DNA of 64,000 nucleotides from Psammoneis japonica (Eukaryota). A model generated the notes under the pieces. It was not told the origin of the DNA and ran no database searches. It was given only the letters and a program-made list of their open reading frames with translations. The position numbers and the translations under genes are program-made. Of the stretch, positions 1 through 55,230 are shown piece after piece. Every line of letters starts with the position of its first letter. Position 1 is the first letter of the stretch. The stretch is from positions 1 through 64,000 of the forward strand of contig QPGO01000021.1 in assembly GCA_008632985.1 (NCBI GenBank), written 5' to 3'.

Positions 1-330
1 GCGACGAAGCATGCTGGGGTGTCACCACTGATGGCACAGAACAAACGCAAGAGACTCATGGCGGCTTGGTGCATTTGATGATTCAGCTGCATTGGCTTGC
101 CCTTCTGATGATTGTTGCCACAGCAGTTGCTTGGCGAGTGGTTCGCAAGCGCTGTCAAAAGAGGCGTCAGTGCTCCAGCATTGATGATTCAGTCGCAATG
201 CTTCCAGTGACGAAGGGAGAGAATTGTTGACAGAACAATTGATCGAGTGACAGAGCGAGAAACGAGGCAGGGCAACGGAAAGAGAAGAAGATGTATGTTG
301 GAACCACATTAGACGTTGCACATGTATGCT

Positions 331-412
331 CGAATCTCGATGACATGGTGACGCAACACGTTCCGAGACGAGCACAGCAATTCAAAAGCACGCACAGTAG
401 ATTCAAGTTTGA
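331..412 (+). pseudogene. Degraded duplicate of the thioredoxin 3' end and 3' flank
   Basis: cgaatctcgatgacatggtgacgcaacacgttccgagacgagca...caagtttga aligns to 3637-3719 (NLDDMVTQHVPRRA vs NLENMVMQHVPRRA). The stops TAA TAG read CAG CAA in the copy. Confidence 0.8.
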
Positions 413-497
413 CAAGAAGTACAGAGATTCACAAATGAACTGTTTTGGTCTTCTCCTCTCTGAAGTCCATGCGAATGTGATGTTTCATAGATCAGGA

Positions 498-2483
498 TTA
501 CAAATCCAGCGAAAAGACATAGGCCGAACCCGACGATGTCCCTTTGACATCACGAAGTCGTGCACCGACAGCAACAGCACCGCCGCTTGCGGACAGCGAA
601 ACAGACTCTCCAAACCGGTCACTCGACGTCTCTCCCGTCAAGGATGTGCCCACCTGTTTCCATTCCATTTCACCATGCTGAAAGATTCGGACCTGACCCG
701 TGTTAGTCAATCCATTGGCGTCGTGCCAGTGGCCTCCCGCCGCTGCGACACGTCCGTTTGCACTCAAAGACATGGACCAGCCAAACTCATCATCCACTTG
801 CAGAGTAGAAAGGGCTTGGCCTTGTTGTTCCCATGATTCAGAAGAGCCATCGTATTCGTACACAAAGACTCGTCCAATGGTCGTAAGATCCAAAAACTCG
901 CCGGGTGCACCCACGGCCATGACCAATCCGCTGTCATCCAGCGCCACCGAGTGTCCAAACCAACCACCGGCGATTAGACCATCAACAGCATCACCCATGG
1001 GTTCCCATGTGGACGTTTCCGAGCTACACTGAAACACAGAAGCCTGACCTCCGCTGATCGCACCGGAATCACTCTGACGTGCTCCAATCGCAAGCACTCC
1101 ACCAGAGCTGCTCAGCGACACAGACCAGCCAAAGGAATCGCTCGAAGCTTGTCCCAACAGTGTTTGACCAAGCTGTTGCCATGAGCCGTCCTTGTGTTGA
1201 AATGCTCGAACCGATCCCGAGTCATCGCCGTTGCTCGTGTCTTCCATGTGGGATCCTGCAGCGACAATGTTTCCTTCTCTATTCAGCGACACTGAAATGC
1301 CAGAGCATGCAAAAGCTTGAGAACCGTCAATGTCGCTGCCGAGTTGGATCCACTGATCCGTGAAGGAACCATGTTGAAGCACTCGGACGTGACCCGCATT
1401 GGATCCACCGCTGCTGTCGTTTTCATCTGCTCCAATGGCAACGACAGCACCATTTCCATTCAGCGCCACGGATTCGCCAAAGTCGTCACCCGCGGCGTCT
1501 CCCAGCAAATCTTGTCCCATGGGCATCCACAAGGGTGATGATTCATCTGCAAGTCGAAACACAGACACGTGCCCGCGTTTGGTGGAGGTTTGTGTGGCTC
1601 CCACAGCCATGACGCGGGCGTCGTCTCGTGACAGCACCGCGGGGAGACCAAAAATGTCGGGTGCACTGTTGCCGTGCAAGACTTGTCCCACCGAAATCCA
1701 CGTGCCATTTGGCAATGTTACAAAGGCGGTGGGAGATGGAGTGGGGGACAGAGTCGGCAGTCTTGTAGTTGGACTTGTCGTGGGACTCGTGGGATTTTTT
1801 GGCGATGGCTCTGGTGAGTTTCCGCCGCTGCCGCTGTTGTTTCTCATGGACAGTGCGATGGCTGCTGCCACCAGCACGGCAAGAACAACAACCAGAAACC
1901 CAATCACCGATGCAATCAGCCAAATCCGACGACTCTTTATCACTCTCTCTGCATCTTCCGACTCATCGTCATTGTTGACCACTTGAGCAACCTCTGCGTG
2001 AGCAATCGGAGCTGACTGACGAAACTCATCTGGCTCCGACCGCAAATGATCGATTTCTTGTTGCATGCTTCCCACGTCTCGTGGTGACTGTGCGACTTCA
2101 GCCTTGACCACCACAGCACTGTTCGTGTTGGGTGGCTTGACGGGAGGAAGGTGCTGCTCTTGGACAATTGTTGTGTTGTCCAACTCGGTGAAGACCGCAA
2201 TGCTGTCATGGTCACCAGCACGTGGAGTCACGCCTTGTGGATTGACTGCACATGCCCCGGCTGCGGTTGGCATGGCAATTGGTTCTGCCATGACATTTCC
2301 GATTCCTTCTTCCTCGTCATGTTGTTGAAAACGACAATGACCACGACGCTTCTCGTGCATTTCGGGAGCAAAATTTTCACAGGCAGCACGTGACACTGCC
2401 GATTCAGCAGACGAAATCATCACGGGAGAGAACGAAGCCACGGTAGAACGTACGGGAGGACTCAAGGAGACTTCATCCGACAT
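498..2483 (-). CDS. Type II membrane protein with FG-GAP/integrin-alpha-like beta-propeller repeats (possibly mutationally damaged)
   Basis: 661 aa ORF with a TM helix (IWLIASVIGFLVVVLAVLVAAAIAL), a Pro/Thr linker (PTTSPTT..PTPSPT) and about 7 repeats of FG-x-SV-x-L...AxGA...G.V.VF...W.Q.G. Only 3 Tyr. Confidence 0.75.
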   Translation of the reverse strand: MSDEVSLSPPVRSTVASFSPVMISSAESAVSRAACENFAPEMHEKRRGHCRFQQHDEEEGIGNVMAEPIAMPTAAGACAVNPQGVTPRAGDHDSIAVFTELDNTTIVQEQHLPPVKPPNTNSAVVVKAEVAQSPRDVGSMQQEIDHLRSEPDEFRQSAPIAHAEVAQVVNNDDESEDAERVIKSRRIWLIASVIGFLVVVLAVLVAAAIALSMRNNSGSGGNSPEPSPKNPTSPTTSPTTRLPTLSPTPSPTAFVTLPNGTWISVGQVLHGNSAPDIFGLPAVLSRDDARVMAVGATQTSTKRGHVSVFRLADESSPLWMPMGQDLLGDAAGDDFGESVALNGNGAVVAIGADENDSSGGSNAGHVRVLQHGSFTDQWIQLGSDIDGSQAFACSGISVSLNREGNIVAAGSHMEDTSNGDDSGSVRAFQHKDGSWQQLGQTLLGQASSDSFGWSVSLSSSGGVLAIGARQSDSGAISGGQASVFQCSSETSTWEPMGDAVDGLIAGGWFGHSVALDDSGLVMAVGAPGEFLDLTTIGRVFVYEYDGSSESWEQQGQALSTLQVDDEFGWSMSLSANGRVAAAGGHWHDANGLTNTGQVRIFQHGEMEWKQVGTSLTGETSSDRFGESVSLSASGGAVAVGARLRDVKGTSSGSAYVFSLDL

Positions 2484-2498
2484 TTCTTCAGATCCAGG

Positions 2499-2864
2499 TC
2501 ACCGGGAAGACCTTGTGCTCACGCCGAGCATTCCAAACTGACCGACACCGCCAATGTTTCGTCGACTGGCAGTTCTTGCCACTGCATTGCGGTGACTGAT
2601 GGCAGCATCTCTTGTTTCATATAATCTCTCTTCACTCTGCAAAATGCGCTCGGCGGCTGCATCGATGTTCCGTGTTTGTGGCTCATGTTGACCAGAGCAA
2701 ATCGCCTCCACTGAACGGCCCACATTTCCTCCATGTTGAGCAAGGATCGACTCAAATTCTGCCACTGGCATGTCCTCAAACAACTCCACGAGTTGCATCA
2801 GTTCATGGCTTGACGATGACGACATGATGCTGGAAGTCTCTCTTTGAATGAATGAGGGTATCAT
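2499..2864 (-). CDS. Small protein with a CUE-like ubiquitin-binding domain (may be a 5' exon of the adjacent gene)
   Basis: LMQLVELFEDMPVAEFESILAQHGGNVGRSVEAI resembles the CUE consensus. It ends only 15 bp before the FG-GAP ATG. Confidence 0.45.
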   Translation of the reverse strand: MIPSFIQRETSSIMSSSSSHELMQLVELFEDMPVAEFESILAQHGGNVGRSVEAICSGQHEPQTRNIDAAAERILQSEERLYETRDAAISHRNAVARTASRRNIGGVGQFGMLGVSTRSSR

Positions 2865-3140: not shown

Positions 3141-3683
3141 ATGGCGGCGTGTTGTATTGGTGGCGTTTGCATCCCTTACAGTGCCATACTCCCATTATTG
3201 GCACTGGCATTGAAATGGCTCACCGCCAAATTGGCAGTGTTGGGAGTTTTACCCGATTCTGTAGTGGAGCGGTTTGGATTGCAACAACAACAAACTACCA
3301 CCAAGAGCTGCTGTCAAGAAAATGCCTCCCGTAGTATCAACACGACTAAAGCTCCAGATGTAAGAACAATCGAATCGACAGAGGAATGGAACGACTTGAT
3401 TCAAGATGAAAACAAAGTGATTGTCGTCAAGTTTACAGCATCCTGGTGCAAACCCTGCAAAGAAATTGCTCCCTACTTTTCTCAGCTCTCCTCTGGAGAC
3501 TTTGACGCGACCTTTTGTCAGGTTGATGTCGATGATCTAGACGAGGTAGCGGCGCAACACAAGGTGGCCATGATGCCCACCTTTTGTGTCATCAAGGGAA
3601 AGCAAGAACTAGCCACGAGTCGAGGAGCCAATCAAGCGAATCTCGAAAACATGGTGATGCAGCATGTTCCAAGACGAGCTTAA
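3141..3683 (+). CDS. Thioredoxin with N-terminal Cys-rich hydrophobic extension
   Basis: VVKFTASWCKPC active site, VDVDD and MPTF motifs. ATG at 3141 (MAACCIGGVCIP), TAA at 3681-3683. Confidence 0.9.
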   Translation: MAACCIGGVCIPYSAILPLLALALKWLTAKLAVLGVLPDSVVERFGLQQQQTTTKSCCQENASRSINTTKAPDVRTIESTEEWNDLIQDENKVIVVKFTASWCKPCKEIAPYFSQLSSGDFDATFCQVDVDDLDEVAAQHKVAMMPTFCVIKGKQELATSRGANQANLENMVMQHVPRRA

Positions 3684-3902
3684 TAGTTCAAAAAGTATGT
3701 ACAGTAGACTCAAGTTTGATTAGTGTAGAGCTTTATCAAAGGAATCTCTAGTCTTGTTGCTTTGCTTCAGCGTTACAACCAACTTGGACTTTCCACACGC
3801 CTCGAACCTGCTGGCCGTGACTGACTCACTCGATGCTGTGTAACGGAAGTAACGAGAATATCAATCCCTAGACTAAAAACAGGCAGGAGCAACAGTCATG
3901 TA

Positions 3903-4265
3903 TGGGGACATACCGAATGATTTTAGCCAGTGGCTAAAATCTTGTGTAGACACATACCAGGTTTGTACGCTAGTATATTTTCTACACAGAAAATATTTAC
4001 TATCCACTTTACTGAACCTATAAATGTCATATCTGTAACGGTTTGCTGCTAACTATAACGTTCGTTTTAATATAAAACCTTTAGCTTTAAGCCTCTAAAA
4101 ATAAATACAAAAACAAAAAACTACAAATAATAATATGTATATAAAAGAAAACAATGGGGTGGCGTTAAAAGGCGTTATCATTAAATAAATCGCATACCAG
4201 GAGAAATGCGCATAATTCTACAGGAGGTTTTTAGCCACTGGCTAAATTTATTCGGGATGTCCCCA
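3903..4265. mobile_element. MITE-like non-autonomous DNA transposon
   Basis: About 37-bp imperfect terminal inverted repeats (tggggacataccgaatgattttagccagtggctaaaa / ttttagccactggctaaatttattcgggatgtcccca), TA on both flanks, AT-rich non-coding interior. Confidence 0.75.
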
Positions 4266-4518
4266 TACTATTATACCTTATATCTGCTTTGATTCAAGAC
4301 GCCATGTTTGAATACCACGCGTCAGTAGAGATGCAACCATCGTCCGTGGCAATCGTGGCTCTGTGCGGGTTTCATGTCGGTCGTGGATCGGCATCACTCG
4401 GTGTCGGAGGGTTCAGAGAAACTAACCAAGTAGTAGTGACAATGGCAAATACTTCTATACGGTAGTTTATTATAGCTATTGTAGCAAAAATTGTTGTCGG
4501 CAAGTGACACACAAAACT

Positions 4519-7321: not shown

Positions 7322-7854
7322 GGTGAAGAGGGGCAGTGATACCTTGGCCGTGTTGTAACTCTCTTGCCTCGTTTCAAACGGCTCGTGCCTGTTGGTCTTG
7401 GTGTGATCACTTCTCACGCGAGAGCTTGTGTGTGGCGTCTTTTTTCGATGGCCGGTTTTTGTCGTTTTTTCGATCACCAAGTAGAAATCTACACAAGGTA
7501 CTACTCCTACGTACATTGCACGGCACTGTGTACCGCGGGGAATGACATTTTGTTTCAATTTGATTGGCGCACGCCAGAATGTCCGAGCACCCAGAATGTC
7601 CGAACGTTTTCGAAAACAGGATCGCAAATCGTTTTGCCGTAGAATTCTACGTGCTGAATGGTAACGAACACATCTGTTTCGCGCCATTTTTTAAATAGGG
7701 GTGTCAACCATTCGTCAAATAATAAAGGAAGTCACGATTGTTTAGACATACATCATTATAATAATGATAGATATTTGCATACGTATATCCATAACTTATA
7801 GTACATCAATAATATATGAAATAAATAATGAACCAACTTTATGATAAACATAGT

Positions 7855-10560
7855 GTCGCAGCAGGTTGAAGGTGCTCATGCGCGCGCCAAAAAAGATGAC
7901 CTCACTCGTTCAACACTCGCCAAAAGCTGACAGTTCGCATTTTGCGTTGATCGCACACATTGTGCTGTAACAAGCCGTGGAAGGGCTTGCTGTGCCACAT
8001 TCCCCACCTTGCATGTAAAATGCAAGGTGTTTGCTGCAGGGCCCCATGAGGCTGCACCATTGCTTCTTTGTTTCTTAGTGAAAGAACACTGAAAAAGTTC
8101 TTGAGGAAAGAACACATGAGAGCTTGGTGAGAGACAAGACAAGAGCACTTGAAAAAAGAAAAAAAAAGAACTGCTTTTGGCCCAGATTTGAGACAAATTG
8201 GGTTGCCCCTGCATTGTCAACTTGAGCTGCAGGAGTGCTGGGGTTGTGTGAAGTGCAGTGTGGCAAGCTCCTCCAAAACACACACAAAGTTGCAACAGGA
8301 GCGCGCAAAGTGCTCAAAAATCACGGGAGCCAACCAAAAGCGGTGGTGTTTGAGGTTGATGCAGCAAGAGCAGCAGTGCTGTGAGCCCTCAACCACACAA
8401 GGAGCATGCAGCAGGGGTGTGTGGGGGTCATGTGTCAATGGCTTTTCCAGCAGCACACAGCACGATGCGGCCACACAGCTCACTTTGTGTTGGCAGCTTT
8501 TTTTTCAGCCCGGAAAATGCAGGCGAAATTGTCCCCTCATGCCTTCTCTTGTGATGCTGGAAAAACATCACCTTTGTCAGAGTCAGGGGCAGAGACAGAC
8601 AGGGCTCTGTCACTGCCATCAAAGCATTGGATTGACGCAAATCTTTTCTCCAATGATGTTGATCACAACTTTGTGGACATTTTGGAAAAGCTCTGGATGG
8701 CTGCAGGGAGCTGGGGAACTCTGTGGCCATCACCTCCTTTTCTTGGGAGGCAAGTTTGCCAGCTCTCTCATCTTCTCTCTTTTTCAATGACCACAAGGCC
8801 CTCTTGCCACCAATCATTTGAGCCTTCTTCCTCTTTGCCATTGTGCCAAGACAGCAACAACATGGTGCACAAATTGTGCTTTGACCTGCCTGCATTGTTT
8901 GCGCAATTCTCTGCCTCAGTTTCATGGCCACACAACCCCTGCATGTTTTCTGTCTGAGCTCTGGTGCTGATGTCGCTTTTTCTGATGGTGTGATGATGGC
9001 TCTTGCCTGCCCTTTCCAACTGTGTTTTTTGTCAACATGCCTTCATTCTGTCATCACAAGTGCAATGCACAGCTGCCAACAAGAGCCAATGTATCACGGC
9101 AACGTGTTACAGCCTTTAAATGTCACAAAGGGCGTGACAAAAACAACCTTTTGTCTGCATGCATGCTGCACCATGAATTCACAGCGGAGTGGTTCATCGC
9201 AACCATCAGGCAGGAGGCCAGGGGTTCGAAACCCTGAGTGGGAGTTGTCTGCAGCAACGTTGATCACTGTCGAACGCGCAAAACTCTGTGCAGTTCTGCA
9301 CATTCCTTCGTGCGCACCCACACTGTTCTGCCAAAAACCGTGCAGTGTCAGCGCACGTTAGCAAAGAGCCGCATGGATGCGTGACACATGGGGAGGAGTG
9401 CAACACACAGCTGCTGATGAGAGTCAATGCATCACGGCGACGTGTCACAGCCTTTAAATGTCACAAAGGGCATGACAAAAACAACCTTTTGTCTGCATGC
9501 ACACTGCACAAGCAATCTCATGAATTTGAAAGTGACCAGCACTGACCTCTTTTGGCTCGCATGCTTGTCATTCTTGTCGGCAATTTTTTTCCTCGGATGC
9601 AAAGTTTTCACACAAGTTTCAGCACAAATTCTGCATGTTCTGAGAGTCCATTCTCTGTCCACACCTCTCAAGTGTCAGCGACTCCTCTTCGTCCATCCGT
9701 TGCCAATTTAAGTTCTCTGCTTTGATGTGGCAAACAATCTTCCATCATTGATGCTCCCAGAAGCCTGCATTTGCAATCAACTCAGCATGAGTTTGCCATT
9801 CTTTCATTTTCTGATAATTCCACACAAGTTTTGGTGCAAATTCCATGTGTCTTGAATGCATTTTTGGATGATCAACCCCTGCCGATCTGTCGGCTGTTTT
9901 CTGTTCACGCCTCTCAGGTGTGAACAAGAACTTCCCTCTCACCCACCGCCAATTTGAGTTCTCTGCTTCATGTGGTGAACAATCTTCCATCATTGCCACC
10001 TGCAGAACTTTGAATTCAAGACTGCTTCAGTGTGGATTGACCAGTTTTTCCTGTCCCTTTGTTCTTTCTTTGGTTGCTGCGCCCACACCACATTGCCTCT
10101 CTGTGTCGTCCTTGCAGCCAGATCTTGTCCCAAAAGTGGATGGCCCAATGGCAGCATCAAGTGCTTCAAATTTGATGTCTGGTTTTGTGGGTCCTGTTCT
10201 TGCTTCTGCCAGCCATTCCCGGCAGGCGCCACAGAGTTGTGGCATCATTTTTTGCCAATTGGGGCACTTTCCTGCCCCGAATTTTGTCAGTGTGCTGGGG
10301 GTGTGGGTCAGCTCATTGCCGGAGTTGCAGGGTAGAAGCATGGCAGCACTTTTTATTATAGAATTTTGGTTTTGTTTTGCCTGCATTGTTTGTTTGCCCT
10401 CTGAAGAGTCGCCGTCTTCTGACTCTTTCAAAAAGATTTTAAATGATCCTTTTCTATTGCACGCCACCACGCACATCGCGACGGGAGCCAAACAGACCTG
10501 GCCGTCTGCCGTCTGCATGCCAGCCGCCGCCGAGCTTCGAGCTTCGAGCCGAGCTTTTTG
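7855..10560. other. TpA- and CpG-depleted, TG/CA-rich degenerate repeat block
   Basis: Abrupt switch from TA-rich flank (7740-7850) to near TA-free sequence. Many overlapping Cys/His/Gln-rich, Tyr-poor ORFs and internal duplications. Confidence 0.75.
9061..9509 (+). repeat. About 110-bp direct repeat (9061-9171 and 9399-9509)
   Basis: Shared core cagcctttaaatgtcacaaagggc-r-tgacaaaaacaaccttttgtctgcatgca. Mismatches are almost all TA/CA, CG/CA or TG/CA swaps. Confidence 0.9.
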
Positions 10561-27181: not shown

Positions 27182-29470
<2,289 letters not shown>

Positions 29471-34740: not shown

Positions 34741-34854
34741 GGTGTGCCGACCTGCAGTACAGTGCAGCATACAATAAAGTGCGTACAAACGGTTGATTCT
34801 TGAATCGGAATTTGTGAATTTTTGTGCGCGTGCGTGCAGTCACCCGTTTTTCAA

Positions 34855-36589: not shown

Positions 36590-36742
36590 CGCACAAGCAT
36601 TTGGCAGTTTTGACAGAGTCATTTTGTCGATGATGCGGCGTCCTATTCACGCCGAGCACAAGCAGCGGTCAACTCCTGGATATTGGGATAGAACTCTGCC
36701 ACCAAGAAGTGAACTGGTGGAAGCAAGTGCAGGGCAGGAGAA

Positions 36743-42099: not shown

Positions 42100-44570
42100 T
42101 CACTTCTCCCAACAAAAGCCCTCTAAGACCACCAGTAAATCATCACCATGAATACCGTCACTGTCGCACGAATGCTCAGAATGAAACCGGAAGACGATCT
42201 GTGGGCGGACATGGAATTCGAAGTGCGAGACGTTGTCCACAAATTCAAACAGCTCTTGCCGCGAAGGAAGAAGACGCGGGTTGGCAACGATTTCGTGAAA
42301 ATCCTTCAGAAAAGAATCCTTCATGCATGTGGTAAACCATTCAGGAGCACTCTCCTCGTAGAGTGGAGGAGCCATTGCGGTCATTAAGAGAAGTGGACTC
42401 ACATCAATGCCGCAAAAGCCACGGTCAATCACAAGTTGTGCAGCATTGAATCCCACTTCGTCTGAGCCACAAACGCCAAGTCGCCACTTCCGTGACGGCC
42501 ACGGAGACCGTTTGTCTCTGTGCTGACCTGTGCATCATGCACGGTTGCAGCTTTTAGGTTGTCCGTACAAAGTAGAAGAACTCACATGCGTGCAGTCACA
42601 ACGTGCCCGAATTCTTCTACGCGTTGTCTTTCAGAAGTCATCGTTGTCGTCATCTTCCCTGGTCATCCTCCTCAGAGCCTTTGGTGTGAAAGAGCTCCAC
42701 ATGCACGGGCCACAGCATCACTGAGAGAAAGCGTGGGCGTGAGAGGACGATGCGAGCATTGAGACAACCGTCACCGATCATTGCCAGTCATGGGGCCAAC
42801 GAGTGGCAGTCACTGAGAGTGCTGTTGCCAAATGCGGTGGCAGCAGCTTCTTGATCTAGAGACAAGCAAATGGCTTTCCAGAGTGCTGGATTGGTTGTCC
42901 ACACCTTCGAAACAGATGAGGAGGATGACAAATCATTGCAGGCAGGAGAGACACCAGGAAAACACATGCCATGAGATGTGCTCAAATGTGTTCTTCCCCC
43001 AGCAAAAAGCCCCTCCAATGCTGCCAACAACTTGTCACCATTGACAGGTCCAAAGCACAAATGAGCACAAGCATTTCCAAAGAAAAAAGTGATTTGAGGA
43101 CCTGGAACTCCAACTCCGAGACATGGGCCACAAATTCCATCAGTTCTTGCCATGTAAAGAAAAGTGCTCAAACCCAATTTTTAAGTGCTGTTGCACCTTT
43201 GCCCAGCAACACCGGCACCGACAAACCCACACTTCCAGTGCAATCAACTGGGAGCATGACACAGAAGCTCATGAAATTAGCCGGTCGTGGCACCACTTTG
43301 CAGCAACGCCCTCCGGAGACAACTGGTTGTGAAATGAAACCACACAAGAATTGGGCCATTGCTTTCTTTTGGAATGAATGCAAAGTGTTCACACAACAAC
43401 AGCAAAGAACAATTGTGTTCAGAAGAAGATGCAAAAGCACCTCAAGATCTGGGAGAAGAACCTTGCTTGTCTGCACCAAAGAGGGACTGGATCACACACT
43501 TGCAGGCACGGGAACAAAAGCAAACAGTTTGCTGCATGGAGCAGCAATCTTGGCAAGCTGGCAAATGGAAGAAGGGATGTTCAGGACTTGCAAGTGTACA
43601 TTGGGGAGCCTTGATGATGTCACAATGCTGAGTCTTGCATGGAAATGCCAATCCGCCATGCATCAGATGGACGATGTCAGGTGATGCCAATGGTTCATCC
43701 AAGTGAACACTCACAAGAACCATGACATGCACAAAACTTTCACTGAATGAAGTGTGAAGAACTCAGTTGGCCAATGAGAGCAGAAGAAATCATTGGGAAC
43801 TGATGGCTGTGGATGGAAGTGGTGCACATGTTGACAAAGTGGTTGTTGGAGCACATTTCTGAAGCACACAGAATTTGTGCTGGATCCTGTGTAGAAAATG
43901 CTCTGAATTTGCAAAAAATTGCCAAAAAGATCAACAAGCATGTGTGAGCCACAAGGTTTTGATGCCGGTCATTTTCCACTCAAAAGCATTAAAAAGGGCA
44001 ACAGCATCAGCATGAGAGCATGTGCAGAAACACATGTGGGGGCTGCCAGTGGGGGCTGACATCAAGGAAGTCTTGTTGTGTGAGAAGTGGCAGACATCTG
44101 ACAAGACAGCCAACATCTCACAAAAAAGTCCTTCATGCATGTGGCAAACCACGGAGGAAGATTCTCCCCCATGATGACAAGGGGTTGTCAGAGTCATGAG
44201 GAGAAGAGGACTCACTGCAACTCTGGTGCAGCCAAGCTCAAGTGAAAGTCCAGTGGCATTGTGCCCCACTTTGCCACAGCCAATCACCAAGAAGTCTCTA
44301 CTTGCATCACAGCTGTGGCCACACATGTTGCATTCTGGGGCAATGCAAGCATCACACACGTTCACAAAATCCAGTGGATTGCCTTTTTGGCGGAATTGCA
44401 CTTGCATGCATGCATTGGCAAAGAATTCTTTTGTCACATGTCTCGCTGGTGTCAGATGTGCATTGCATCCAAACTGAAGGTCATCATCACTGTCACCATC
44501 ATTTTTGTCATCAAGTCCAAGGTCTGGAGGAACACTTGCCCAAACATTCAGGGCTTTGGGGGGTTTCATC
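42100..44570 (-). pseudogene. Three degraded paralogous fragments of an unknown protein family
   Basis: GFNAAQL..VSPLLLMT (about 42390-42456) matches GHNATGL..VSPLLLMT (about 44195-44270). PQIVF..GDDLLVVLEG (42100-42210) matches PQITF..GDKLLAALEG (42990-43100). DNA ccttcatgcatgtgg-y-aaacca is shared. Confidence 0.6.
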
Positions 44571-47500
44571 AAGAGAGAAGTGCCGCATCACTTGTCTGGG
44601 TTCATCCTCAGTGATGCCATTGATGTTGCAATGCACGCAGAGCTCAACACTAGCCACAAAATCACTGTGACAAAGTGCTGGCATGAGTGGATGGCAAGCC
44701 AACAGCATTTTAGGTTGTTGATCCTCAGTGCAAGAAATGGAGTTGATTTGGCAAGACAAATGAGGCACATGGCAGACAAATGTGGGAAAGACCAAAAAAA
44801 ATGTGTCCAGAGATTGGGCTGTCATGCATGACAGCCTCTTAGCCTTTGAACAGGTTCACAATGGACGGGCCCCAACATGGCTGGAAATGATGATGCTGAG
44901 GAGACACGATCATGGTGCCTCCACTGACAGCAGTCTCTTTGGCTTTGAACAGAGCCTCACATTTTCTGCTGCTGCTGCTGCTGCTGCTGCTGCCTGCTGC
45001 CACTCTACAATGGACTGACTGTTGCTCACTCATGCTTTCTGTTTCTTGTGCTTTTTTGAATTCAAGGACCCAGAAACTTGTGTCATGTGACATCACACAC
45101 AAACGCTTGTGCAAATCAAATCTTCAGCAAGCAAAAAAAAACTCAAGTGACAGTTCTCATCATTGTTGATGCTTTCTGCCATGTTGCCAACTTTTTACCA
45201 TCTCAAAACCCCAGAGCAAACTCCTCTTTTGCCATGACAGTCTACATCCCAAATCAACTCTTCATCATTCATTGCATCCCCCTGTTGTGCAACATGACTT
45301 CTCTCACATGGAAGGAGAGATGAATGGACTGCCTTTGACACCATGTTTTTCCTCAGAGTGTTCTGTGTCTTGCATCCCATTGTTGCCTCAAGGGATGTGT
45401 GCAAAGTTTGATTTGTGGATCACAAGATGATTGACAAGCTCGCTGGAAACATCAATGCACGTCTTTCAAAGACATTTGAAAGACAAAAACATTGAAGACA
45501 AATCAGCGGTGGTTGTGAATGATGCTGTTGCCACAGCATTGGCTTCTGTTGGCTGGTGGGTGTCAGAAGATTGAGACATCTTCCCAACAAGGCATTTGAG
45601 TCATCCTTGGAACTGGCAACAACTTGGATTGTGTGGAGGGAACACAGATGCACAACATCAAGACTGGTGGTTTCAAAAATCTCAAGTGCAATGAGATCAA
45701 CAAAAGTGGCATTGACATTGAAAGCCACAATGAAAGCAAAACTTTTACAAAAAGGCAGTCACTGAAGAGTGCCTTGGTCTGCTCACATTGAGGCAATTAA
45801 AAAAGAGCCCTGACTGAAAGAAACACAAAGAAATCCTTCAGAGAATGCAAGGAGGAGCAAGGTTGGACAAGATGTGGGAGCTTCTCAAGACCATGGATGC
45901 ACCTGAGTCCTTCAAAAAGATCTTTGAAAAGGTGATTGATTGTGCAGCTAAGCTGCACCAGTTGCATTGTTTGTTGCTGCAGCCATTGCAAGGACTGGCA
46001 AAGGATTGCAGAACAGAAACCAGCCAACCAGGTCTGTGTCAGCACAATCGGTCAGCGCAACAAGATGGTGCAGGAAAAAGTGGAGTCTTGTCTCAGAGAG
46101 GTTGTCAGTGAAGGCATTCATTGTCATTGCATTTGTGTTGAGAGTGCCTTTGCTGTTGGTGCAGCCATCACAGAATCTTGGCTTCCAATGAAGAGGAGCA
46201 GATGTTGGAGTGGATGGAACTCTCTTCTGGCACCAATGAACAGAGAAGCCAGACATTGTGCTGCATGGCTTGGACATTCTGTGCACATCCATCAATCCTG
46301 TGAAAAGTCTTCACCTGGTGTTTTTAAAGCATGCATGCTCCCACTGTGCAACACAACTGGCTGGCTCTAGCTGGAGAGAGAGAGAGAGACTGCAGCACTG
46401 CAGTTACGTGAGACAGACAGATGGTGTCAGCGCATTTGAAGCACTGTTGCCCATGTCACATTGCATCATCATCCTTCATCATTGCAATCTGTCCACTGTC
46501 CATTGCCATTCTAAATTTGCCAGTTTTGCCAGTTTTGCCAGTTTTTTGTTGACAAACCATGAAAAGCTCAACAGCTTGCAATGGTGTTGGCAAAATTGAT
46601 CCCAGCCCCTCCAAAAGGATGACATGCAACCAAAGCTTGCCTTTGCAAGCCAGCTGTCCCAGGGACAATGCAAACTGTTTTAAGATGTGGCATCCTCCCA
46701 ATCCTCTCCTGTCAATGCACACATTTCATTTGTGCCACACAAAGTGTGCAAAGCACCGAGGACAGCCAGCAACAAGAAGTGGCAATTCTTGAAAGCTCCC
46801 TTTTGCTTTTGAACAACAGAACATGGAATGGCCAGACTCAGCACATGGCATTGCTGTGTCATTGGCACCATGCAGCAGAGTGCTGGTTGCTTTTGAGAAA
46901 TGCCCATGTCCTCAATGTCATGCTGTGATCACTGCAGGATCAAGCAGAGCTCAAGTTGTCTTGTCCTGTGGTGTGGCTGTTCTCACCACAACTCAGGAAC
47001 AGCAGCAAGTGACTGTGATTTGTTTGATGGTGTTTTTCCATGACATTTTCACAGCTCTTGCAGGAGCATTTGTGCAGTGCTGAGCACAGTGCCATGAAGT
47101 GTTTGCTGCCATGTGATTGCAACATCTGTCTTGTCAAAGATTTACATTTTGCCACTTGGGATGTCTTTGCAAGTCATGCAAGTCACAACTCCTCTTCAAT
47201 CCAGCAGGAGTTGACCCACATGTGCTTGCAGAGGAGCTGAAGGCTCCAGTGGCTCAACTCAGCAGTGCTTGGATTCCATTCTCTGGGCAAAGCAATTTGA
47301 CACAGCAATCTGCAGCTTTGTTGTTTGTGCCATGCCAATGACCCTTGCATGCTCATGGATGAATCACTCTCAAGGATGCAGACTCAAGGTGCTGCAACAG
47401 CTGCACATGGGCAAACATGCACAAAAAGACATGTGCACATGGGGCATCATCAGATGGCTTTTGTGCTCCCTCTGTGATTGAAGCTTCAAAGAACTCATGA

Positions 47501-50500
47501 GAAGCAAGTTAAATGAGCACATTGCAGCTGAAAAGAAAATTGAAACAGCTGTCTTCCTCAGCTGTCTAAAGCTCTGTTGCCAACACACATGACTGGAGCA
47601 AATTTTGGCCATTGCCCATGTGTCTTGGCGGTCTGACCCAGACTTCACCCACCAACAAAGCAACAAAAAATGGTTTTTGTTTTCAAATCACAGCAGGTTT
47701 CTGGGCAGAGAGTCCCCAGCTCCAGCAACATGTTTGGAAAACAACTGCCTGGCTGCAACAAGGTTGAGCCACTGCAAACAAGTTTGCAGATTGTGCTGGC
47801 ACCCCAACAAAGACTGGACAGCCACACACTTGCACTGCACAAGGGGGGGGCGGGGGTGCTCACATTGATGTGCATGAATGGTTGCCATGCCCAGCCCCAG
47901 TGCCATTCAGTTGAATTTTTTAATCTACAAGGACTCTCTCTGCCCACAAGTTTCCTGGGGAGGACTCAAAATGAGGCAAATGAGGCATGTGCCCTTGTCA
48001 AAGCCACTCACAGCTTGAGCATCACCAAATTCATTGGGAGGGGTGGGGGCACAACACAAGTGACCATGTGCACAACAGCATCATTTCATCAGCTTTTGCT
48101 GCAGTCACAGGCAGCAACCAGCTCCTCTAGCGCTTCTTGGCGTGTGGGCTTTTGGGCACTTGGAATGGCTCTTGCACTTGTTCTCAGCATGTGCAGGCTT
48201 TCAGGCACTTGGGATGAGAGATGAAGCCCCACACCACAAAAAACAGGGCTGAGTCTTTGCTTGTGCACACTTCTCAGCACTTGCAACTTGGAAAAATGTG
48301 CACACCACTCACCAAGAACTTTGAAAGCAGCTTTAAGCAAAGCAGCCAAGGTGAGAGCACATGGCATTTCTCTTGTTTCTCATTGCAAAGAGAAGGAGCT
48401 CTCCATTTTTGTTTGATGTTGTGCTTCCCTCTTGTGGAAGCACACCAGCATGCTGTCATGCAGAGTGCAGCATTTGCTGGAGTGTGGTGGCTCTGGTCTC
48501 CTCCCTCATGCATCATTGTCTCTCCACCTGCATTGATGTGCTGCTGTTTACTTTTTGGCTGTGGGCTTCAGACTTGGCCACCTCAAGCAGTTTGATGCAG
48601 CAAAATGGCCCATCTGCCAACCATTGGAGTCACCAGCCATTTTAAAATTTGAGCGCAGGTGCGCAAGACCAGAGCAACAGCCACTTTGTTGCTCTCTCAC
48701 TCACTTGCTCTTCTGACTCTTCCAAAGAGCAACCAACAGCAGCAGCTGCAACAGACAAAATGATTTTAATGCGGTTGTCTCAGTGCAGTGCACTGCCCAC
48801 TGTTGTTTGTTGTTTGCAGGAAGAAAGCACAGAGTGCCAACCAACAGGGCATTCTTGGTGGTGGCTGCCATGCAAGCAGCTCAACAATCCTGTGATGGCT
48901 CTTTTGCCCCATGCGCCCAGCTGTGCCAGGCAAAAATCACCTGGTCATGCAGCAGGGGTCAATGTTTCAGCACTGCACACAGGTTGAGATCCAACGCTGG
49001 TTCCTGTCCCAATCCACTGCTCATCAAGAGGTCCCGTTCACTGCCTCAATGCTTCATGGGGCAGAAAAGGGCATGATGTTGTGGTGTTTGATCTCAACTG
49101 CCACAGCAACAACTTGTGCCATTAAATCTTGCAGTCACAAGTTGCCATGATGCAGCGGGACATGGCACAGGTGGCGTGCTCATCCTTGCTGATGCAACTG
49201 TGCAGCGCTGGCTGCCACCACCTTGCAGTTGACAGTGTGATGCAGGTCCCACAGCATGGTGCCTGTCACTTCCCAAATGTGTGCTGGTGGTGTGCATTGC
49301 TGCATGCTCTAACCCATGGGGCCCAACTGCCAACATGGAGCTGGAAGAACTTGCCAACAGAATCATGCAGTTGCACGGCACAGCCAAATGCTTTGACCAC
49401 ATCTGTGAGAGCACCAATCTCTTGCATGCCAACAACTCTGGTGCAATGTGCTGGCAACAAAAAGGGGCCACTGTCACCACAAAACCCACCTCCAAGTTGT
49501 TGCTGTGCTGTCAAGCTTTTCACCAACATTGCCACCAATGCATCGGCCTCCATGTCTGCTGGCCAGGATGCCTCAACTCTGCTGCTCAGTTTAGTTTCGC
49601 TGCAGGATTCCCAAAATTCTCTGGGATTGCCACCTTTCACCATGTTTGAATGATGCTTTGTCAAACATGTGCCCAATGCTTGAAGAAAAAAATCACACAT
49701 TGGGAGTTCCCCATGCTTCCCCTGCATGATGTGACACGTGCACCACAGATGTTGCAGCAGTCCAGAGCTGCAGCAGAGCCAATCAGCTGTCAGACACCAC
49801 ACACCACACAACACATCATCAAACACTGCTGCTTCAACAGTTTGGAGAGCCATTCACTGACAATGACAGCTGCTGCAAGGATTCTCTGCAGCACTGCAGC
49901 ATCTTTTCACTGCCATGTTCATGCCACCGGATTGTTTTCTGATGTCACACAGATTGGTGCTGCATGTTTCTCATTGCAACACAAATGGCAGCCATGCCTT
50001 TTGCTCAGTCAACACCCATCACATTGTCAACACACAAATCAACTCTTGCAGCAGCTGCCTCTTCAACAGCTGTGCCGTTCATTGCCACTTTCATGTGCAG
50101 CACATGATCTTTTTGTTGTCAAGTTGGTGACGCATCTTTCTTTTTTTAATGCCACAAATCTGGCGTTTTTTTTTGTTGAGATTTAAGATTGCATCTTTTT
50201 GTTCATGCACTCACCCATGTCTTGTGCATGACCCTCATCTTTGTCACTCACATTTCAGGGTTTCACTTTTCTCACAAAATTCATTTTGGCAAATGAGTGA
50301 TGAAGAGCAACAGGATGATGCTCGTGTGAGTGTTGCGGCTGTCATTGCAGATGCATGAGGAGCTCCCAGCAATCACAAGCATCTGGGATGGCAAAATTGC
50401 ACCCAAGAATGCAGCTGGCTGGATGTGTGGTTTGTGCAAGCAGTCATGCAGCAGAGCAGCTAAGTGGGTCAATCTGTTCTGGTGTGCAACAGTGCAGCAG

Positions 50501-51118
50501 CAACAGTGCGCAGCAAGCTCCAAATCTTGATTGTCGCATGACAGCAAGATGGAAATTTTCTAGATTGCATTCATCAACTCTGCTGGAGACAAGAGCACAC
50601 CCACCCAAACCACGTTCATCCAGAATTGCCGCAATCCACTCGTTTTTTATTCCCCTCTCCTGAGCCCTTTCAGTTTTTCCTTTTTGCAAAAAATTGCCCT
50701 CATTTCCTGGGCATTTCCCAAAAGGGTTGAGGCAACTCCCCCCCTGCCCTTGCCATTTTGGGGAATCCCCAAATGGGTGAAACCAAACTGAGCTCTTCTG
50801 CTGATGATGCACCCCGCCTCCAATCTTTGTTTGCACTTCCTGAGAGTTTTTGCAAGAGCGCTTTTGCCGTTGTCGCCTGAACAGAAATTCTCTCCTGGTG
50901 CCTCTGGACACCACTGCCTGAGCTGACCTCTTCCTTTGTGAGGACCTCAATGCTGCTCAGCATGCCGTGGCACATTGCATTGCGTCACTGACTCACAAGC
51001 CTCCACTGGCAACAAATGCCCGCTGGCTGCAGGAGAACGAATGAGAAGGGCGTTGCGCACACAGCAGTGCACGCATTCTCAATGTTGTGTTCGCAGCCGG
51101 CCCCCGTGCGTTGAATGA
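42780..51118. other. Long TpA/CpG-depleted degenerate repeat block
   Basis: About 8 kb with very few TA or CG and dense spurious Cys/His/Gln-rich ORFs. Confidence 0.75.
48578..49586 (+). mobile_element. Heavily decayed relic of the same tyrosine-recombinase retrotransposon family
   Basis: 48578-48780 resembles repeat A (aaatttga..gagcaa..cttcc-r-aagagcaac). 49140-49586 encodes CHDAAGHG.GGV, NP.GP..N.ELE and NSGAMCWQQKGAT..KP.S.LL, homologous to the RNase H at about 53010-53460. Confidence 0.8.
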
Positions 51119-51387
51119 CCCACCTTGTGCAGTGCAACAAGGCAAATGACCCACATTTGACCGTTGGGTCATGCAAACCGTTTGAGTTCAAATTTGAACG
51201 TGCTTGCGCGAACTTGGCGAGCAAACAACGGTTTTTTCTGCTCTTTTCTCGTTTGCTTCACTCATTCTTCCGAAGAGCAACAAAGAGCAAGAAGCCGCTA
51301 GACAGTTTTTAACGCTGTCGACGCGGCGCAGGATGCCTCCGCTGTGGCTCCCTGTTGTTCGCAGGAAGAACCTTTGGTGAGTCCATC

Positions 51388-53778
51388 ATGGACGTGCAAC
51401 AGCAGCAAAACGCAGGACAAGGGGCCCAGAATGCCCAAAATGCCAACGACCCTGCTCCACCGCAAAGAGGAGCTGCAGCAGCCGCCGCGGCAGCCCAAAA
51501 CGCTCCGCCACCTCCTCCTCCACAAGTCCTGGTGCCTCCGGTGGCACCGCAAGCAGCAGGAGCCGTCATGCCGCCACCGCCACCGGGTGCACAAGCCGCA
51601 CCGGTGGCGCCGCCGGTCATTGCGACGCACCGGGATTTTTACCTCACAGCCGCTAACGACCCACACCGGGGGGTGCACGACGAGTCGATGCTAGACTTCG
51701 CGGTTCCGGTTCAGGGACCTTCGAGATACAACCCCGGAGTGCTCCATGGGCGAGTTGCAGCGGCGTCAAGTCACGATCAGCCGATGGCCGTCATCGTGCA
51801 CTGCCGAGAGGACGGCGCAGCGGATGAAGGACAGATCCAAGTCCTGCACCGCGTCACCACTTATCCGACGACCGTGGTTGGACCTGCCGAACCTTGGGAC
51901 GGTGAGACGCACGCAATGGCGGGTGACCTAACCCGTGGACAGTTTGCCCTGGTCGAATTCGGGGGCGACTCATTCAACTTGGCACAGCAGGGGACTAGGG
52001 TGCCAACCCACGCCGCACTCCTGGAGCATGTCACCAACAATGCGGAAGGCCTGCATCCGCATCTGGCTGAGGATGCACCAAACTCGGAGGTCGTACGGAC
52101 ACGACATGCAATGCACGTGCCATTTGAGTTCGTGCCGCTCTTGTTGGCACACCCTTTGCATCCCAAACAAGCCCACCAGCGCGTGCACGGCGCCGCTGCG
52201 GCAGCTAACAAGGTGGCTGCCATCCGACCACTGCTCGACTTCTTGCGCGTCGCCTGCTGTGCCACTGCCAACAACCAAGTGGCATCTGTTGTGGCGCAAC
52301 CTTGGCCTGCAATGACACGTCCCCCCAACGAAGCCCTCATTCAATTTTTTGATGCCAAGGTGGAGCGGGACATCCCCGGGAGACTGGGTTGGGCACCACC
52401 CACCGCGCAGCACTTCCAGCCGGTTGCACAGGCCATTGAAGAGCTCACCACTGAACAACGACAACTCCGACTTGATGCTACCGCACGTCAACAAGCGGCT
52501 GCCCGGGGCAAGGTTCCCAATGAGTTCTGGGGACCTTTTGGTGTCACCAAGCTTGTGAATTGGTGCCACGCCCTCAACGAGACAGCACTGCCGCCTGTGT
52601 GGGCCGCCCTTGCCGCAGCGCCTAAGACAGGCCGCCTGGCAGTCGTCCAAAATGCAATTGACGAGCAACGCCAGGCAATGGCCGTTCATTTTGACGCACC
52701 AGTCACGGTTGGCCTTGTCACCAAGCTCGCACAGCTGGATTTTGCTGGTCACAATCAAGACGAGCCAACCCAAGGCATCACTCCATTCCAGTTTGGGATT
52801 GCTGCGCCAGACAGTGCCGAGCAGATCGCCTGTCGCAAGGCCATGTACATGCACATTCATGGCGGCGCTGCGGCCCCGTCCCTCCAAGACACGCAGATCC
52901 TGGAAGCACCAGACAAGGCGCTCGTGGCGACGACAATGCAAGAATCTACCCTAGACGCCCGACCCGTTCGCATTCAAGAATTGGTTCCACTCAAACCAAC
53001 ACTCACCGGCTGTCATGATGCTGCAGGTCACGGCGCAGGCGGCGTCCTCCTGCCAACCAGTGCCACAGCACCCAGAGCAGCCACTCTCCGTTTCGGCAAT
53101 TGCAGACGCTGTCAACAGAGAGATGCGGGTCCTGTAGTGTGGCGACTGCCCTTTCCCAAAAGTGTCAGCAGTCAACTCTCCACTTTCTCCAACCCGCGCG
53201 GTCCCATCACCAACACAGACCTGGAACTTGCCGGCAGTGTCATTCAGTCCTTCGGCGCCGCCGACTGTTTTGACATCCGTGAACGCACCAGTCTTTCACG
53301 CACCGACAATTCAGGCACCATGTGCTGGCAACGTAAAGGTGCCACCACTGCCGTCAAACCCGCCTCCCGGTTGCTTCGACACCAATCCTACCACCAACGC
53401 TACCATCGCTACTTGGGGTTGCATGACTGCCCACCTGGACACCTCAACACTGCCGCTGACGATGCCTCACAACTGCAGTCTTTGTCCAACCATGAATTTT
53501 TGCGTCACTTTAATTTGTGCCATCCGCAGAAACTCTCCTGGCGTCTCTGGATGCCTCCACCAGAACTGAGTTCATACGTGATCTCAATGCTGCTCAACAC
53601 GCAGTCCAGCATGGCGTTGCCTCTTCCAGAGCCTCCGCCGCCAACACCCATTGGGACAAATGGTGAGAGTTCTGCTCCTCTTTGGCCATCGACCCACTCC
53701 TCAAAGACATTGACGACCCTGTTGTCTTCCTCCAAGTCTTCTTGCACCGATGCCGCACAGGAGTCCTCGCGCCGCTGA
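51388..53778 (+). pseudogene. Gag-like region fused in frame to a DIRS-type RNase H domain (RT apparently deleted)
   Basis: Pro/Ala/Gln-rich gag-like N-terminus, then RNase H motifs HDAAGHGAGGV, ITNTDLELAG, RTDN and PGHLNTAADDAS. No RT YxDD-like motif between them. Confidence 0.75.
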
Positions 53779-54664
53779 AGATGCCATGCGTTCGGTTGGC
53801 CAAACGTTTGCTGCAATGGGGTCCCCGGATCCACGCCACACATCCCAAGGCACAATGGATTTCCGCCTCACCTGGCAAGTCCGTTTTTACAAGAAGCAGG
53901 ATCCACCCCCAGACCACGTAAAACCGGTCCCAATTGCAGTGCTGCAATGGATTATGACCGCCGCAGCCCTCAGCAATGCCCCGGGCACACAAGCCATTGC
54001 TGAAATGATTGTACTTGCCTTTTTCTTCCTGTTGCGGCCTGGCGAGTACACCGCAACACCATCAGACACCACCCCCTTTCGTCTCGCCGATGTCCGGCTT
54101 GTGTCTGGTGGTGCTCACCTTGATGCCATGCAAGTTCCACTTGCACACCTTGACACAGCAAACTTTGCCACTCTCACCTTTGCCACCCAGAAAAATGGAG
54201 TGTGAGGCAAAGTTCTAGGGCTTGGTCTTTCCGGTCACCCCCACCTGTGCCCGGTTCAAGCCCTCATCCGCCGTGTCCAACACTTGCGCACCCACGGTGC
54301 GCTCCCTGACACACCCCTTGGTGTTTGCTTTCAAAACAACACCTGGCGTCGTGTGTCCCCGGCTGACATCACCAGCATGCTGCGCAATGCTGTCACTGCT
54401 CTCGGTCCGGCTAATCTTGGCTTCACCACCCGAGATGTTGCCACTCGGTGTCTTCGTGCCGCCGGAGCAATGGCCCTCCTTTGTGCCCGCGTCGACACCG
54501 ATCTCATTCGGCTCTTGGGCCGCTGGCGATCCGACGAAATGTTGCGACACCTGCACTTGCAAGCAGAACCAGTCATGCGCAACTTCGCTCGCGACATGCT
54601 CGCCGGTGGCGACTTCGTCCTCCACCCCAATGCTGACGTCCCTCAAAATCCTCAAGACGCCTGA
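53580..54664 (+). pseudogene. Tyrosine recombinase of the retroelement, inactivated
   Basis: FFFLLRPGEY (Arg I), TQKNG, RCLRAAGA and GRWRSDEMLRHL with the expected catalytic Tyr as His (CAC 54548-54550). In-frame TGA at 54203 and a frameshift near 53775. Confidence 0.85.
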
Positions 54665-54691
54665 TCACCACAGCCCTCCAGCCTCAACCCA

Positions 54692-55230
54692 CCCACCCTC
54701 CCAAAAGTGCACGGCACTGTGGGTGGCGCTGGAAGGCCCTGCCATTCCAGCTTGGGATTTTGGGAATGAGGCTTGCGCATCCGCTAGCAAAGCCATTCCA
54801 GTCCATCATTAGAAGATCTCTAGATGGCACTAGAGAGCCGCAGGAGAAGGAACAAGACGGGCGGCGTGAGCCGCCCACCTTGTGCAGTGCGACGAGGCAA
54901 ATGACCCACATTTGACAGTTGGGTCATACAAACCGTTTGAATTCAAATTTGAACGTGCTTGCGCGAACTTGGCGAGCAAATGACGGTTTTTTCTGCTCTT
55001 TTCTCGTTTGCTTCACTCATTCTTCCGAAGAGCAACAAAGAGCAAGAAGCCGCCAGACAGTTTTTGATGCTCCCACCTCTCCCGCCCTCTGGCCCTGCCG
55101 TTCCAGCTTGGGTTTTTGGGAATGAGGCTTGCGCATCCGCTAGTAAAGCCATTCCAGTCCATCATTAGAAGATCTCTAGATAGCACTAGAGAGCCGCAGG
55201 AGAAGGAACAAGACGGGCGGCGTGAGCCGC
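54692..55230 (+). repeat. 3' B1-A2-B2 split direct repeat block
   Basis: The 140-bp B cores differ at 4 sites; A2 matches A1 over about 197 bp. Confidence 0.9.

Follow-up and report, generated by a model that had tools for sequence, protein, structure and literature searches.

Probable in-place mutation of TpA to CpA and TpG in repeat-derived blocks of a Psammoneis japonica contig

The first 64,000 nt of contig QPGO01000021.1 of Psammoneis japonica (assembly GCA_008632985.1), referred to here as the window, contain several long blocks of DNA from which the dinucleotide TpA has almost disappeared. These blocks appear to be retrotransposon copies and other repeat relics that lie between diatom genes and have been rewritten in place, at the level of the DNA, and the agent is probably a mutational process that turns TpA into CpA or TpG. 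Two dinucleotide-specific transition processes would be at work in the blocks. One would be the ordinary decay of CpG to TpG and CpA that arises from cytosine methylation of silenced repeats. The other, the TpA process, would run at about 60 times the background transition rate and about three times faster than CpG decay; being the faster of the two, it would be the first to be seen, as in a young element and in a gene for an FG-GAP-repeat protein, both of which still have normal CpG. It would act site by site and on either strand, with RTAY preferred and TTAA most spared, and would end within about 50-600 nt of the block edges. It would also make no stops, so that affected open reading frames (ORFs) remain open while Tyr becomes His or Cys. 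The depletion, its polarity, the limits of the affected domains, the rate relative to CpG decay and the strand symmetry are documented in what follows.

In the window as a whole, the observed/expected ratio (O/E) is 0.37 for TA and 0.73 for CG, with CA at 1.43 and TG at 1.41. A two-state model applied to TA versus CA+TG calls TpA-depleted segments at 10-2853, 7854-10328, 14038-15171, 22407-26945, 29260-34755, 36213-36634 (small) and 42159-55134, for a total of 29,886 nt or 46.7% of the window. These segments match the six blocks, estimated at about 45% of the window, that a preliminary description of this DNA had reported as nearly free of TpA. Five blocks have a TA O/E of 0.04-0.09, the stretches 1-2400 and 51000-55000 one of 0.14-0.20, and the gene regions in between one of 0.43-0.67. 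When the DNA is read in 500-nt intervals, TA O/E stays at 0.00-0.17 across long block stretches and at 0.3-0.7 in genes, and some intervals of adjoining intergenic DNA are rich in TA, as had also been described (O/E 1.12 at 4001, 1.45 at 62001 and 0.89 at 55001). Within the core of the five blocks (21,034 nt), 91 TA are observed where base composition predicts 1,432.

The same five blocks have lost CpG, a feature that the preliminary description missed. Their core contains 234 CG compared with 1,190 expected, and CG O/E is 0.14-0.44 in the blocks designated B2 to B6a (Table 1) versus 0.91-1.10 in genes; CA and TG each reach about 1.6-2.1 times expectation. CpG-depleted segments are present at 7954-9182, 9443-10402, 13940-15249, 22354-26896, 29536-34380 and 42779-51017. 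At four block ends their edges are 49-100 nt from the corresponding TpA edges; at the other six the distance is 78-620 nt. The blocks had been presented as a single class; instead, five are doubly depleted and two zones have lost TpA only, namely 1-2853 with the FG-GAP gene (TA 0.14, CpG 0.89) and 51119-55230 (TA 0.20, CpG 0.82). The sixth block of the earlier account is therefore composite, consisting of an old relic (42159-51118) and a young element (51119-55230) whose CpG is intact. Since TpA loss reaches both this young element and a gene region with intact CpG, it is independent of prior CpG decay. Single-copy genes located 240-600 nt from block edges are spared.

The bases that surround TpA influence its loss. 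The ratio of blocks to unique DNA is 0.03 for ATA, 0.06 for GTA, 0.14 for CTA and 0.29 for TTA; ATAT is found 0 times in blocks versus 200 times in unique DNA, GTAC 2 versus 194 times, and TTAA makes up 50 of the 194 TA counts that survive in blocks. AA shows no loss (O/E 1.14-1.41). Each block holds CA and TG in nearly equal numbers, with a slight excess of CA on the + strand in all five. The order in which CA and TG follow each other agrees with a random series in B1, B2, B4, B6a and B6b (runs z -1.2 to +0.4), B5 being the block that deviates (z -2.45), and in all six zones the variance among 40-symbol chunks of the CA/TG series equals that of permutations. The runs test rejects a model of strand-coordinated patches. 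Neither RNA editing that is fixed by reverse transcription nor a processive deaminase working on one strand would be expected to give such random interleaving, which favors events that would occur independently of each other at a symmetric site in double-stranded DNA. In addition, a change of TA to CA or TG cannot make TAA, TAG or TGA from a sense codon, which fits the presence of open frames of 807 and 661 aa in heavily altered sequence.

The direction of change can be read from outgroups. The old relic (B6a) and the young element (B6b) share a pol-like part, for which a consensus of 62 homologues serves as the reference; the FG-GAP protein has 150 homologues. Both sets bear out the earlier observation that conserved Tyr is read as His or Cys, and they polarize the change as TA to CA/TG, as TGC or CAT is found in place of Tyr codons, and GCN in place of Thr codons that follow a T. 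At the conserved Tyr columns, B6a has TGC at three of three, and B6b has TAC, TAC, TGC and CAT at its four. B6b keeps 70 of 74 other conserved residues versus two of four Tyr (Fisher p = 0.028); since the other residues are nearly intact, Tyr was lost first. In B6a, none of the ten Tyr and Arg residues is kept versus 29 of the 43 remaining conserved residues (Fisher p = 1e-4). Conserved Arg columns retain CGN at seven of eight positions in B6b and at none of seven in B6a, where the codons are TGC, TGT, AGC, CAA, CTG, CAT and CAA, five of them direct TGY or CAN products. More generally, the CG sites of B6b correspond in B6a to CA (13), TG (7) or CG (2). All four Thr to Ala changes in B6a consist of a T followed by GCN where B6b has a C followed by ACN. 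The Thr of the homologues fixes A as the ancestral base, and thus the CA/TG doublets at these sites do not come from CG; the most economical reading is that an ancestral TA, divided by the codon boundary, was resolved one way in each copy.

The FG-GAP gene provides a second case. Tyr amounts to 0.45% of its product versus 3.84% in the 150 homologues. Of the aligned positions at which the homologues have Tyr, 8% keep it, versus 48% in the NPC1-like gene of the window that was used as a control (the FG-GAP positions are redundant, as these proteins are internally repetitive). Residues that face the homologues' Tyr are Phe in 23% and His in 11.6%. Conversely, the His and Cys of the FG-GAP product most often face a homologue Tyr (18% and 26%, respectively), compared with 5% for His in the NPC1-like control. 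TA counts at the three codon positions are 4, 4 and 7 (662 codons) versus 29, 31 and 44 in the HECT ligase gene (1,173 codons). Because TA is low at all codon positions and in the flanks of the FG-GAP gene, codon usage is not the cause.

Duplicates within the blocks reveal changes that followed duplication. The pairs of words first quoted for this DNA are all present: tgtatc/tgcatc at 9090/9428 and gttaca/gtcaca at 9106/9444, and ctagca/ctagta and gatggc/gatagc in the pair 54735-54874 / 55091-55230. In nine in-block duplicate pairs, CA/TG accounts for 41 of 62 adjacent double transitions. Such doublets would arise if an unstable intermediate, CG or TA, was resolved separately in each copy. B2 contains duplicates with a 338-nt period (9059-9171 / 9397-9509) that differ by 13 transitions and 0 transversions, ten of which form four CA/TG doublets and two CA/TA differences. 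A duplication in B5 (30771-31393 / 31790-32416) is 79% identical, with 55 transitions versus 26 transversions and 13 CA/TG doublets, and its identity is 88.6% in purine/pyrimidine coding. Finally, in the repeat pairs of B6b that resemble long terminal repeats (LTRs), transitions that stay within the CA/TG/CG/TA set make up 11 of the 14 differences, and five of nine TA-bearing sites differ versus about four of 20 CG sites, small and unpolarized numbers which suggest that TpA changes several times faster than CpG.

The balance of dinucleotides points in the same direction. As a fraction of all dinucleotides, CA+TG has risen by 0.0870 in the blocks, and CG and TA have fallen by 0.0459 and 0.0344, so that the loss of CG covers 0.046 of the 0.087 gained. 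The GC dinucleotide is up and AT is down, as is predicted by changes of GTA to GCA and ATA to ACA. In simulations that start from the B6b sequence and apply uniform substitutions with a 20-fold CpG transition rate (0.1-0.3 substitutions per site), CpG reaches the observed level and TA O/E climbs to 0.40-0.64. Decay of 5-methylcytosine (5mC) at CpG is thus unable to remove TpA, as had been argued before. TpA transitions at about 60 times background are needed for a TA O/E of 0.04-0.05; a 20-fold rate gives 0.12. The rebound of TA in the simulations also rejects a merely inherited, TA-poor composition of the old blocks. What stands of the original proposal, an A:T to G:C mutator on repeated or heterochromatic DNA, is the mutational loss of TA to CA/TG on repeats; a homology trigger, a role in defense and the identity of an enzyme go beyond what the evidence shows.

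Table 1. Depleted blocks and related features of the window
Feature	Position	Strand	Description
B1, TpA-only zone	10-2853		TA O/E 0.14, CpG 0.89; extends past left end of window
FG-GAP-repeat ORF in B1	498-2483	-	Open, 661 aa; FG-GAP_2 E 2e-24
B2, doubly depleted	7854-10402		TA O/E 0.09, CG 0.44
B3, doubly depleted	14038-15249		TA O/E 0.04, CG 0.30
B4, doubly depleted	22354-26945		TA O/E 0.05, CG 0.14; no recognizable protein domain
Hsp70 gene	27182-29000	-	HSP70 E 1e-106 and 1e-113; between B4 and B5; spared contrast
B5, doubly depleted	29260-34755		CG-depleted over 29536-34380
B6a, doubly depleted	42159-51118		TA O/E 0.08; CG-depleted over 42779-51017
B6a, old decayed copy of B6b	LTR-like piece 48578-48825; pol C-terminal relics 49092-49667, 50785-50982		Sequence match
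B6b, young LTR-like retroelement derivative	51119-55230	+	TA O/E 0.20, CpG 0.82, GC 58%
B6b ORF	51355-53778	+	807 aa; gag-like part joined directly to pol C-terminal part, no reverse transcriptase region

The retroelement pair deserves closer description. B6b carries direct repeats at 51119-51316 and 54874-55071 (198 nt, 95% identical, 3,755 nt apart) and a second pair at 54735-54874 and 55091-55230 (140 nt, 97%). The N-terminal, gag-like part of its ORF has two database relatives, P0083 and P0084, ending in a Cys/His-rich motif. The last 218 residues (aa 590-807) have 62 homologous proteins with identities of up to 63%, one of them from the diatom Fragilaria crotonensis, and all six of the homologues that were scanned give a weak RVT_1 match (24-28 bits, below the cut-off of 29.6). 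No reverse transcriptase (RT), integrase or recombinase domain is found in the B6b ORF by Pfam at E up to 10, and a sequence search of the PDB is also empty. B6b thus looks like a retroelement derivative that lacks its RT region. A likeness of its C-terminal part to RNase H was a mere impression that neither of these searches supports. The relic in B6a matches the B6b ORF with 49% aa identity (E 8e-34). In the 62 pol homologues, full-length rows hold the conserved Tyr at 5-9 of nine columns, with no clear sign of the same process elsewhere.

For B4, 189 contigs of a public run can be aligned, of which 133 are less than 95% alike; the differences comprise 130 transitions versus 51 transversions, CA/TG doublets included, and B4 thus has diverged relatives or alleles. 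The presence of a young and an old retroelement copy in one block, the diverged relatives of B4 and the sparing of single-copy genes together place the TpA process on repeats. Within B4, the segment 25801-25981 has a summed contig depth of about 18,900 versus 45-110 elsewhere, with many loose ends at 25827-25888, and looks like a very high-copy short segment or a piece common to another repeat. B3 is interrupted by an assembly gap (198 N at 14084-14281), and its true length may thus differ from that in the assembly. In B2, a core of 289 nt (9092-9380) is far less depleted (TA 4, CG 17, CA+TG 61); this core overlaps the first copy of the 338-nt period, which has TA where the second copy has CA.

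Other searches of the blocks gave little. None of 211 block ORFs reaches the Pfam gathering score; these comprise 61 table-11 ORFs, mostly longer than 110 aa, and 150 out of 185 further ORFs with 60 aa or more, the other 35 lying in 46683-51385. Four sub-threshold matches (DUF6236, Toxin_18, Pox_F17 and Acyl_transf_3) are taken as chance. Self-comparison, including comparison in purine/pyrimidine coding, detects no resemblance among blocks beyond the local duplicates, and the purine/pyrimidine-coded version detects no terminal repeats for B4 or B5. When the 62 pol homologues and gag-like proteins are compared with the window by tblastn, matches occur in B6a and B6b only and none in B2-B5. No related loci are present in the metagenome and viral contigs that were searched.

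The remainder of the window is intron-poor eukaryotic DNA, and the GC content of the window is near 48%. Large ORFs encode a HECT ligase, Hsp70, a GT49 glycosyltransferase, an NPC1/Patched-like protein, a kinesin and the FG-GAP-repeat protein (Pfam). All named relatives of the NPC1-like protein are from diatoms (Seminavis robusta at 43%, then Cylindrotheca, Amphora and Striatella), and the top match has 53% identity. The Hsp70 region, 27000-29500, has a normal composition (TA O/E 0.43, CG O/E 1.09); its gene is represented by two overlapping ORFs (27182-28102 and 28044-29000), which points to either a shift of frame or a very short intron around 28044-28102. The kinesin motor is likewise divided over ORFs 59177-60829 and 60884-61672 (- strand), and the roughly 55 nt between them resemble a short intron. 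ORF 62721-63905 (- strand) matches nothing in Pfam, and its product is nearly devoid of Tyr, Phe, Cys and Trp; a 123-nt tandem repeat (83% identical) that spans 63707-63999 is located within this ORF. Self-comparison also finds near-palindromes at 30551-30674 and 62325-62409 (73% and 79% self-complementary) and a 40-nt inverted repeat pair at 3900-3939 / 4229-4268 (92%).

As a cause of the TpA loss, enzymatic modification of a base has a chance that falls just short of even. An enzyme directed to silent chromatin would modify one base of the symmetric TpA step, and the modified base would then pair as C, or as G. The blocks are presumably methylated, judging from their loss of CpG, and the process may well be targeted to silent chromatin. 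The likeliest chemistry would be oxidation of the thymine methyl group to a product of the 5-hydroxymethyluracil (5hmU) or 5-formyluracil (5fU) type by a TET/JBP-like dioxygenase, which takes somewhat more than half of the weight given to modification and is thus, by itself, doubtful. The alternative would be deamination of adenine by an ADAT/TadA-like enzyme; the natural target of such enzymes is an adenine that follows U. Oxidation of the thymine methyl group to 5hmU and 5fU is described in the available part of PMC9423628. According to the available part of PMC11572971, the transposons of dinoflagellates are enriched in 5hmU, which overlaps with 5mC and takes the place of T preferentially in TA and TC. 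A broader proposal is somewhat less likely than base modification as such: diatoms, or at least this lineage, might possess a chromatin-targeted A:T to G:C system that acts on the symmetric TpA step as a mirror image of repeat-induced point mutation (RIP), at about 60 times background and faster than methyl-CpG decay, and leaves frames open. The enzyme behind it would naturally modify T or A in DNA and be specific for a dinucleotide, and the system would possibly diversify repeated families, for example FG-GAP.

The main rival is a biased correction of T:G mismatches similar to very short patch (VSP) repair, which we judge unlikely. Here, a T:G glycosylase or endonuclease recruited to methylated repeats would convert T:G to C:G in a T(A) context, so that replication errors at TpA are fixed as CA or TG. 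Such repair would give the same products in the same strand-symmetric, site-by-site manner and would naturally be limited to methylated, CpG-decayed domains, and T:G misincorporation rates before repair could supply the 60-fold excess. The blocks do exhibit the conversion of TA-containing words to CA/TG words that is characteristic of VSP-type repair, and the purge of CTAG in E. coli and Salmonella is the only documented case of a TA to CA/TG type that we found (available part of PMC5337935, citing Bhagwat and McClelland 1992). However, a domain in which T:G repair is abundant would be expected to retain its CpG, and the blocks have not done so (O/E 0.14-0.44). In addition, B1 and B6b have lost TpA although their CpG is intact and shows no evident methylation decay. 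It is more doubtful, indeed improbable, that the blocks reflect inherited composition or selection, with transposon lineages that were natively TA-poor (through escape from a TA-reading nuclease or RNase, for example) and that suffered CpG decay later. The young B6b is already TA-poor (0.20) while its LTR-like repeats are 95-97% identical, Tyr is scarce (2.1%) and His abundant (3.8%) in the 62 homologues of the pol family, and the FG-GAP ORF is open with Tyr often replaced by the conservative Phe. Yet TA is scarcer in the older, dead copy (0.08) than in the young one, and the Tyr codons and T/A codon boundaries that are converted in B6a are kept in the young copy or in the homologues. Furthermore, conserved residues have changed in a dead pol fragment, where selection cannot act, in-block duplicates diverge by CA/TG doublets after duplication, and simulated TA rebounds unless it is actively removed.

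A-to-I editing of retroelement transcripts by an ADAR- or ADAT-like enzyme (with U 5' of the edited A), fixed by reverse transcription, is very improbable, even though editing of an A after U is expected to turn TA into TG, a retroelement is present in at least one block, and all seven polarized TA changes in the B6a pol segment are TG on the coding strand. Editing does not explain why CA is about as frequent as TG, or even slightly more so on the + strand of all five blocks, and why the two are randomly interleaved. Moreover, changes in the young copy are mostly CA (T to C) on the coding strand, a dead relic goes on losing TpA, the LTR-like repeats are hit differently after insertion, and the region of a cellular FG-GAP gene is hit together with its flanks. 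The least credible explanation is an artefact of sequencing or assembly, in which modified bases at TA and CG are systematically miscalled. Such miscalls at modified sites occur in some long-read base callers, and the blocks are probably methylated. However, one public DNA run contains 73% of the sampled words of 22000-27400, and contigs from this run (k-mer depth 29-62) agree with B4 at every position over 262-412 nt, and the contig at 22238-22648 spans the B4 edge at 22407. A base-calling artefact is thus unlikely, although the assembly was possibly made from the sample of this run, whose library type is unrecorded. The protein changes also fit real evolution, with an ORF that is kept and old and young copies that are graded, and apart from a scaffold gap the window gives no sign of a poor consensus.

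Several points weigh against in-place mutation of TpA or against the chemistry suggested for it. The modification, the enzyme and the methylation are all putative, and the thymine route leans on the mispairing of 5fU with G. For B2-B5, the loss of TA is derived from composition, mass balance and simulation, and outgroup polarity is confined to B1, B6a and B6b. The LTR-like pairs of B6b supply only 14 differences. In the FG-GAP gene, the most frequent replacement of Tyr is Phe (23%), which suggests long exposure together with selection and not a single burst. Within the aligned pol segment, polarized TA products are TG in seven of seven cases in B6a and CA in five of six in B6b, a skew that could hint at a local strand bias, though the block-wide test is negative. 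An 83-nt duplicate shared by a TpA-poor zone (331-412) and normal DNA (3637-3719) has one-strand C/T differences (7 CA/TA and 3 CG/TG) whose polarity is ambiguous; they could equally reflect T to C in the first copy or one-strand C to T in the second. Lastly, the public run that reproduces the sequence may come from the same sample as the assembly.

If mutation of TpA in place is correct, a strong dinucleotide-specific A:T to G:C process would be a new entry among mutational mechanisms and genome defenses, and would explain an extreme compositional class of diatom DNA. Its signature, joint loss of TpA and CpG with CA/TG near twice expectation, would find silenced repeats that are missed by profile searches. 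Proteins would be scrambled (Tyr to His or Cys, Thr to Ala, Ile to Thr or Met) while their frames stay open, and the enzyme would be of possible use as a natural T:A to C:G editor. For annotation, altered sequences keep long open frames, which gene callers may report as proteins.

Among known systems, RIP invites the closest comparison. RIP makes C:G to T:A changes, turns CpA into TpA and so creates TpA and stop codons. Like RIP, the process described here yields context-specific transitions in repeated DNA, has sharp edges beside spared single-copy genes and lets duplicates diverge after duplication. Unlike RIP, it makes A:T to G:C changes at TpA, removes TpA (O/E 0.04-0.09), makes no stops and leaves ORFs open, and the blocks lack strand-coordinated runs of CA or TG (B5 being the deviating case). 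RIP is triggered by homology and depends on a RID/DNMT-type enzyme and a sexual stage; the repeats seen here are two copies of one retroelement in this single window and the diverged relatives of B4 in the contigs of the public run. RIP-like hypermutation of transposons is present in fungi beyond Neurospora (available part of PMC3318451). Decay of 5mC at CpG accounts for the low CpG of five blocks and part of their CA/TG gain beside genes of normal composition, and for the loss of all seven conserved Arg CGN codons in the old retroelement copy, but it cannot remove TpA, which is lost even where CpG is intact (B1 and B6b).

We know of no 5hmU in diatoms. The 5hmU of dinoflagellates is similar in that a thymine mark is placed on repeats with T in TA preferred, and it offers a possible route to T mutability at TpA; the available part of PMC11572971 reports neither TpA depletion nor T to C hypermutation, and in the present case the modification is putative, with at most indirect support from the loss of T in the RTA context of repeat domains. 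VSP repair converts CTAG to CCAG or CTGG by biased T:G correction, but it is bacterial and genome-wide, affects only a Dcm-related pentanucleotide and causes modest depletion (PMC5337935, available part). By comparison, the process here is eukaryotic and restricted to domains, and affects all TpA, with a preference for RTAY and a depletion of about 20-fold. Editing of retroelements by ADAR and APOBEC and hypermutation by Pol eta at WA motifs produce clustered, context-dependent transitions, with ADAR and Pol eta changing A to G after T. Unlike the blocks, which are symmetric and randomly interleaved, these systems are strand-biased or strand-coordinated, and Pol eta also targets AA, which is undepleted here.

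Among papers on diatom transposons, neither PMC2806351 nor 10.1101/2025.10.24.684338 mentions TpA-depleted repeats in the parts available, and the available part of PMC11804724 contains nothing on the topic. A search of open-licence PMC and bioRxiv full text found no description of such repeats, in diatoms or elsewhere, though a report in a subscription journal is possible. To our knowledge, all described cases of repeat-directed or methylation-linked hypermutation in eukaryotes are C:G to T:A. The blocks of this window are best filed as repeat-associated, context-specific hypermutation with a polarity opposite to that of every described case.

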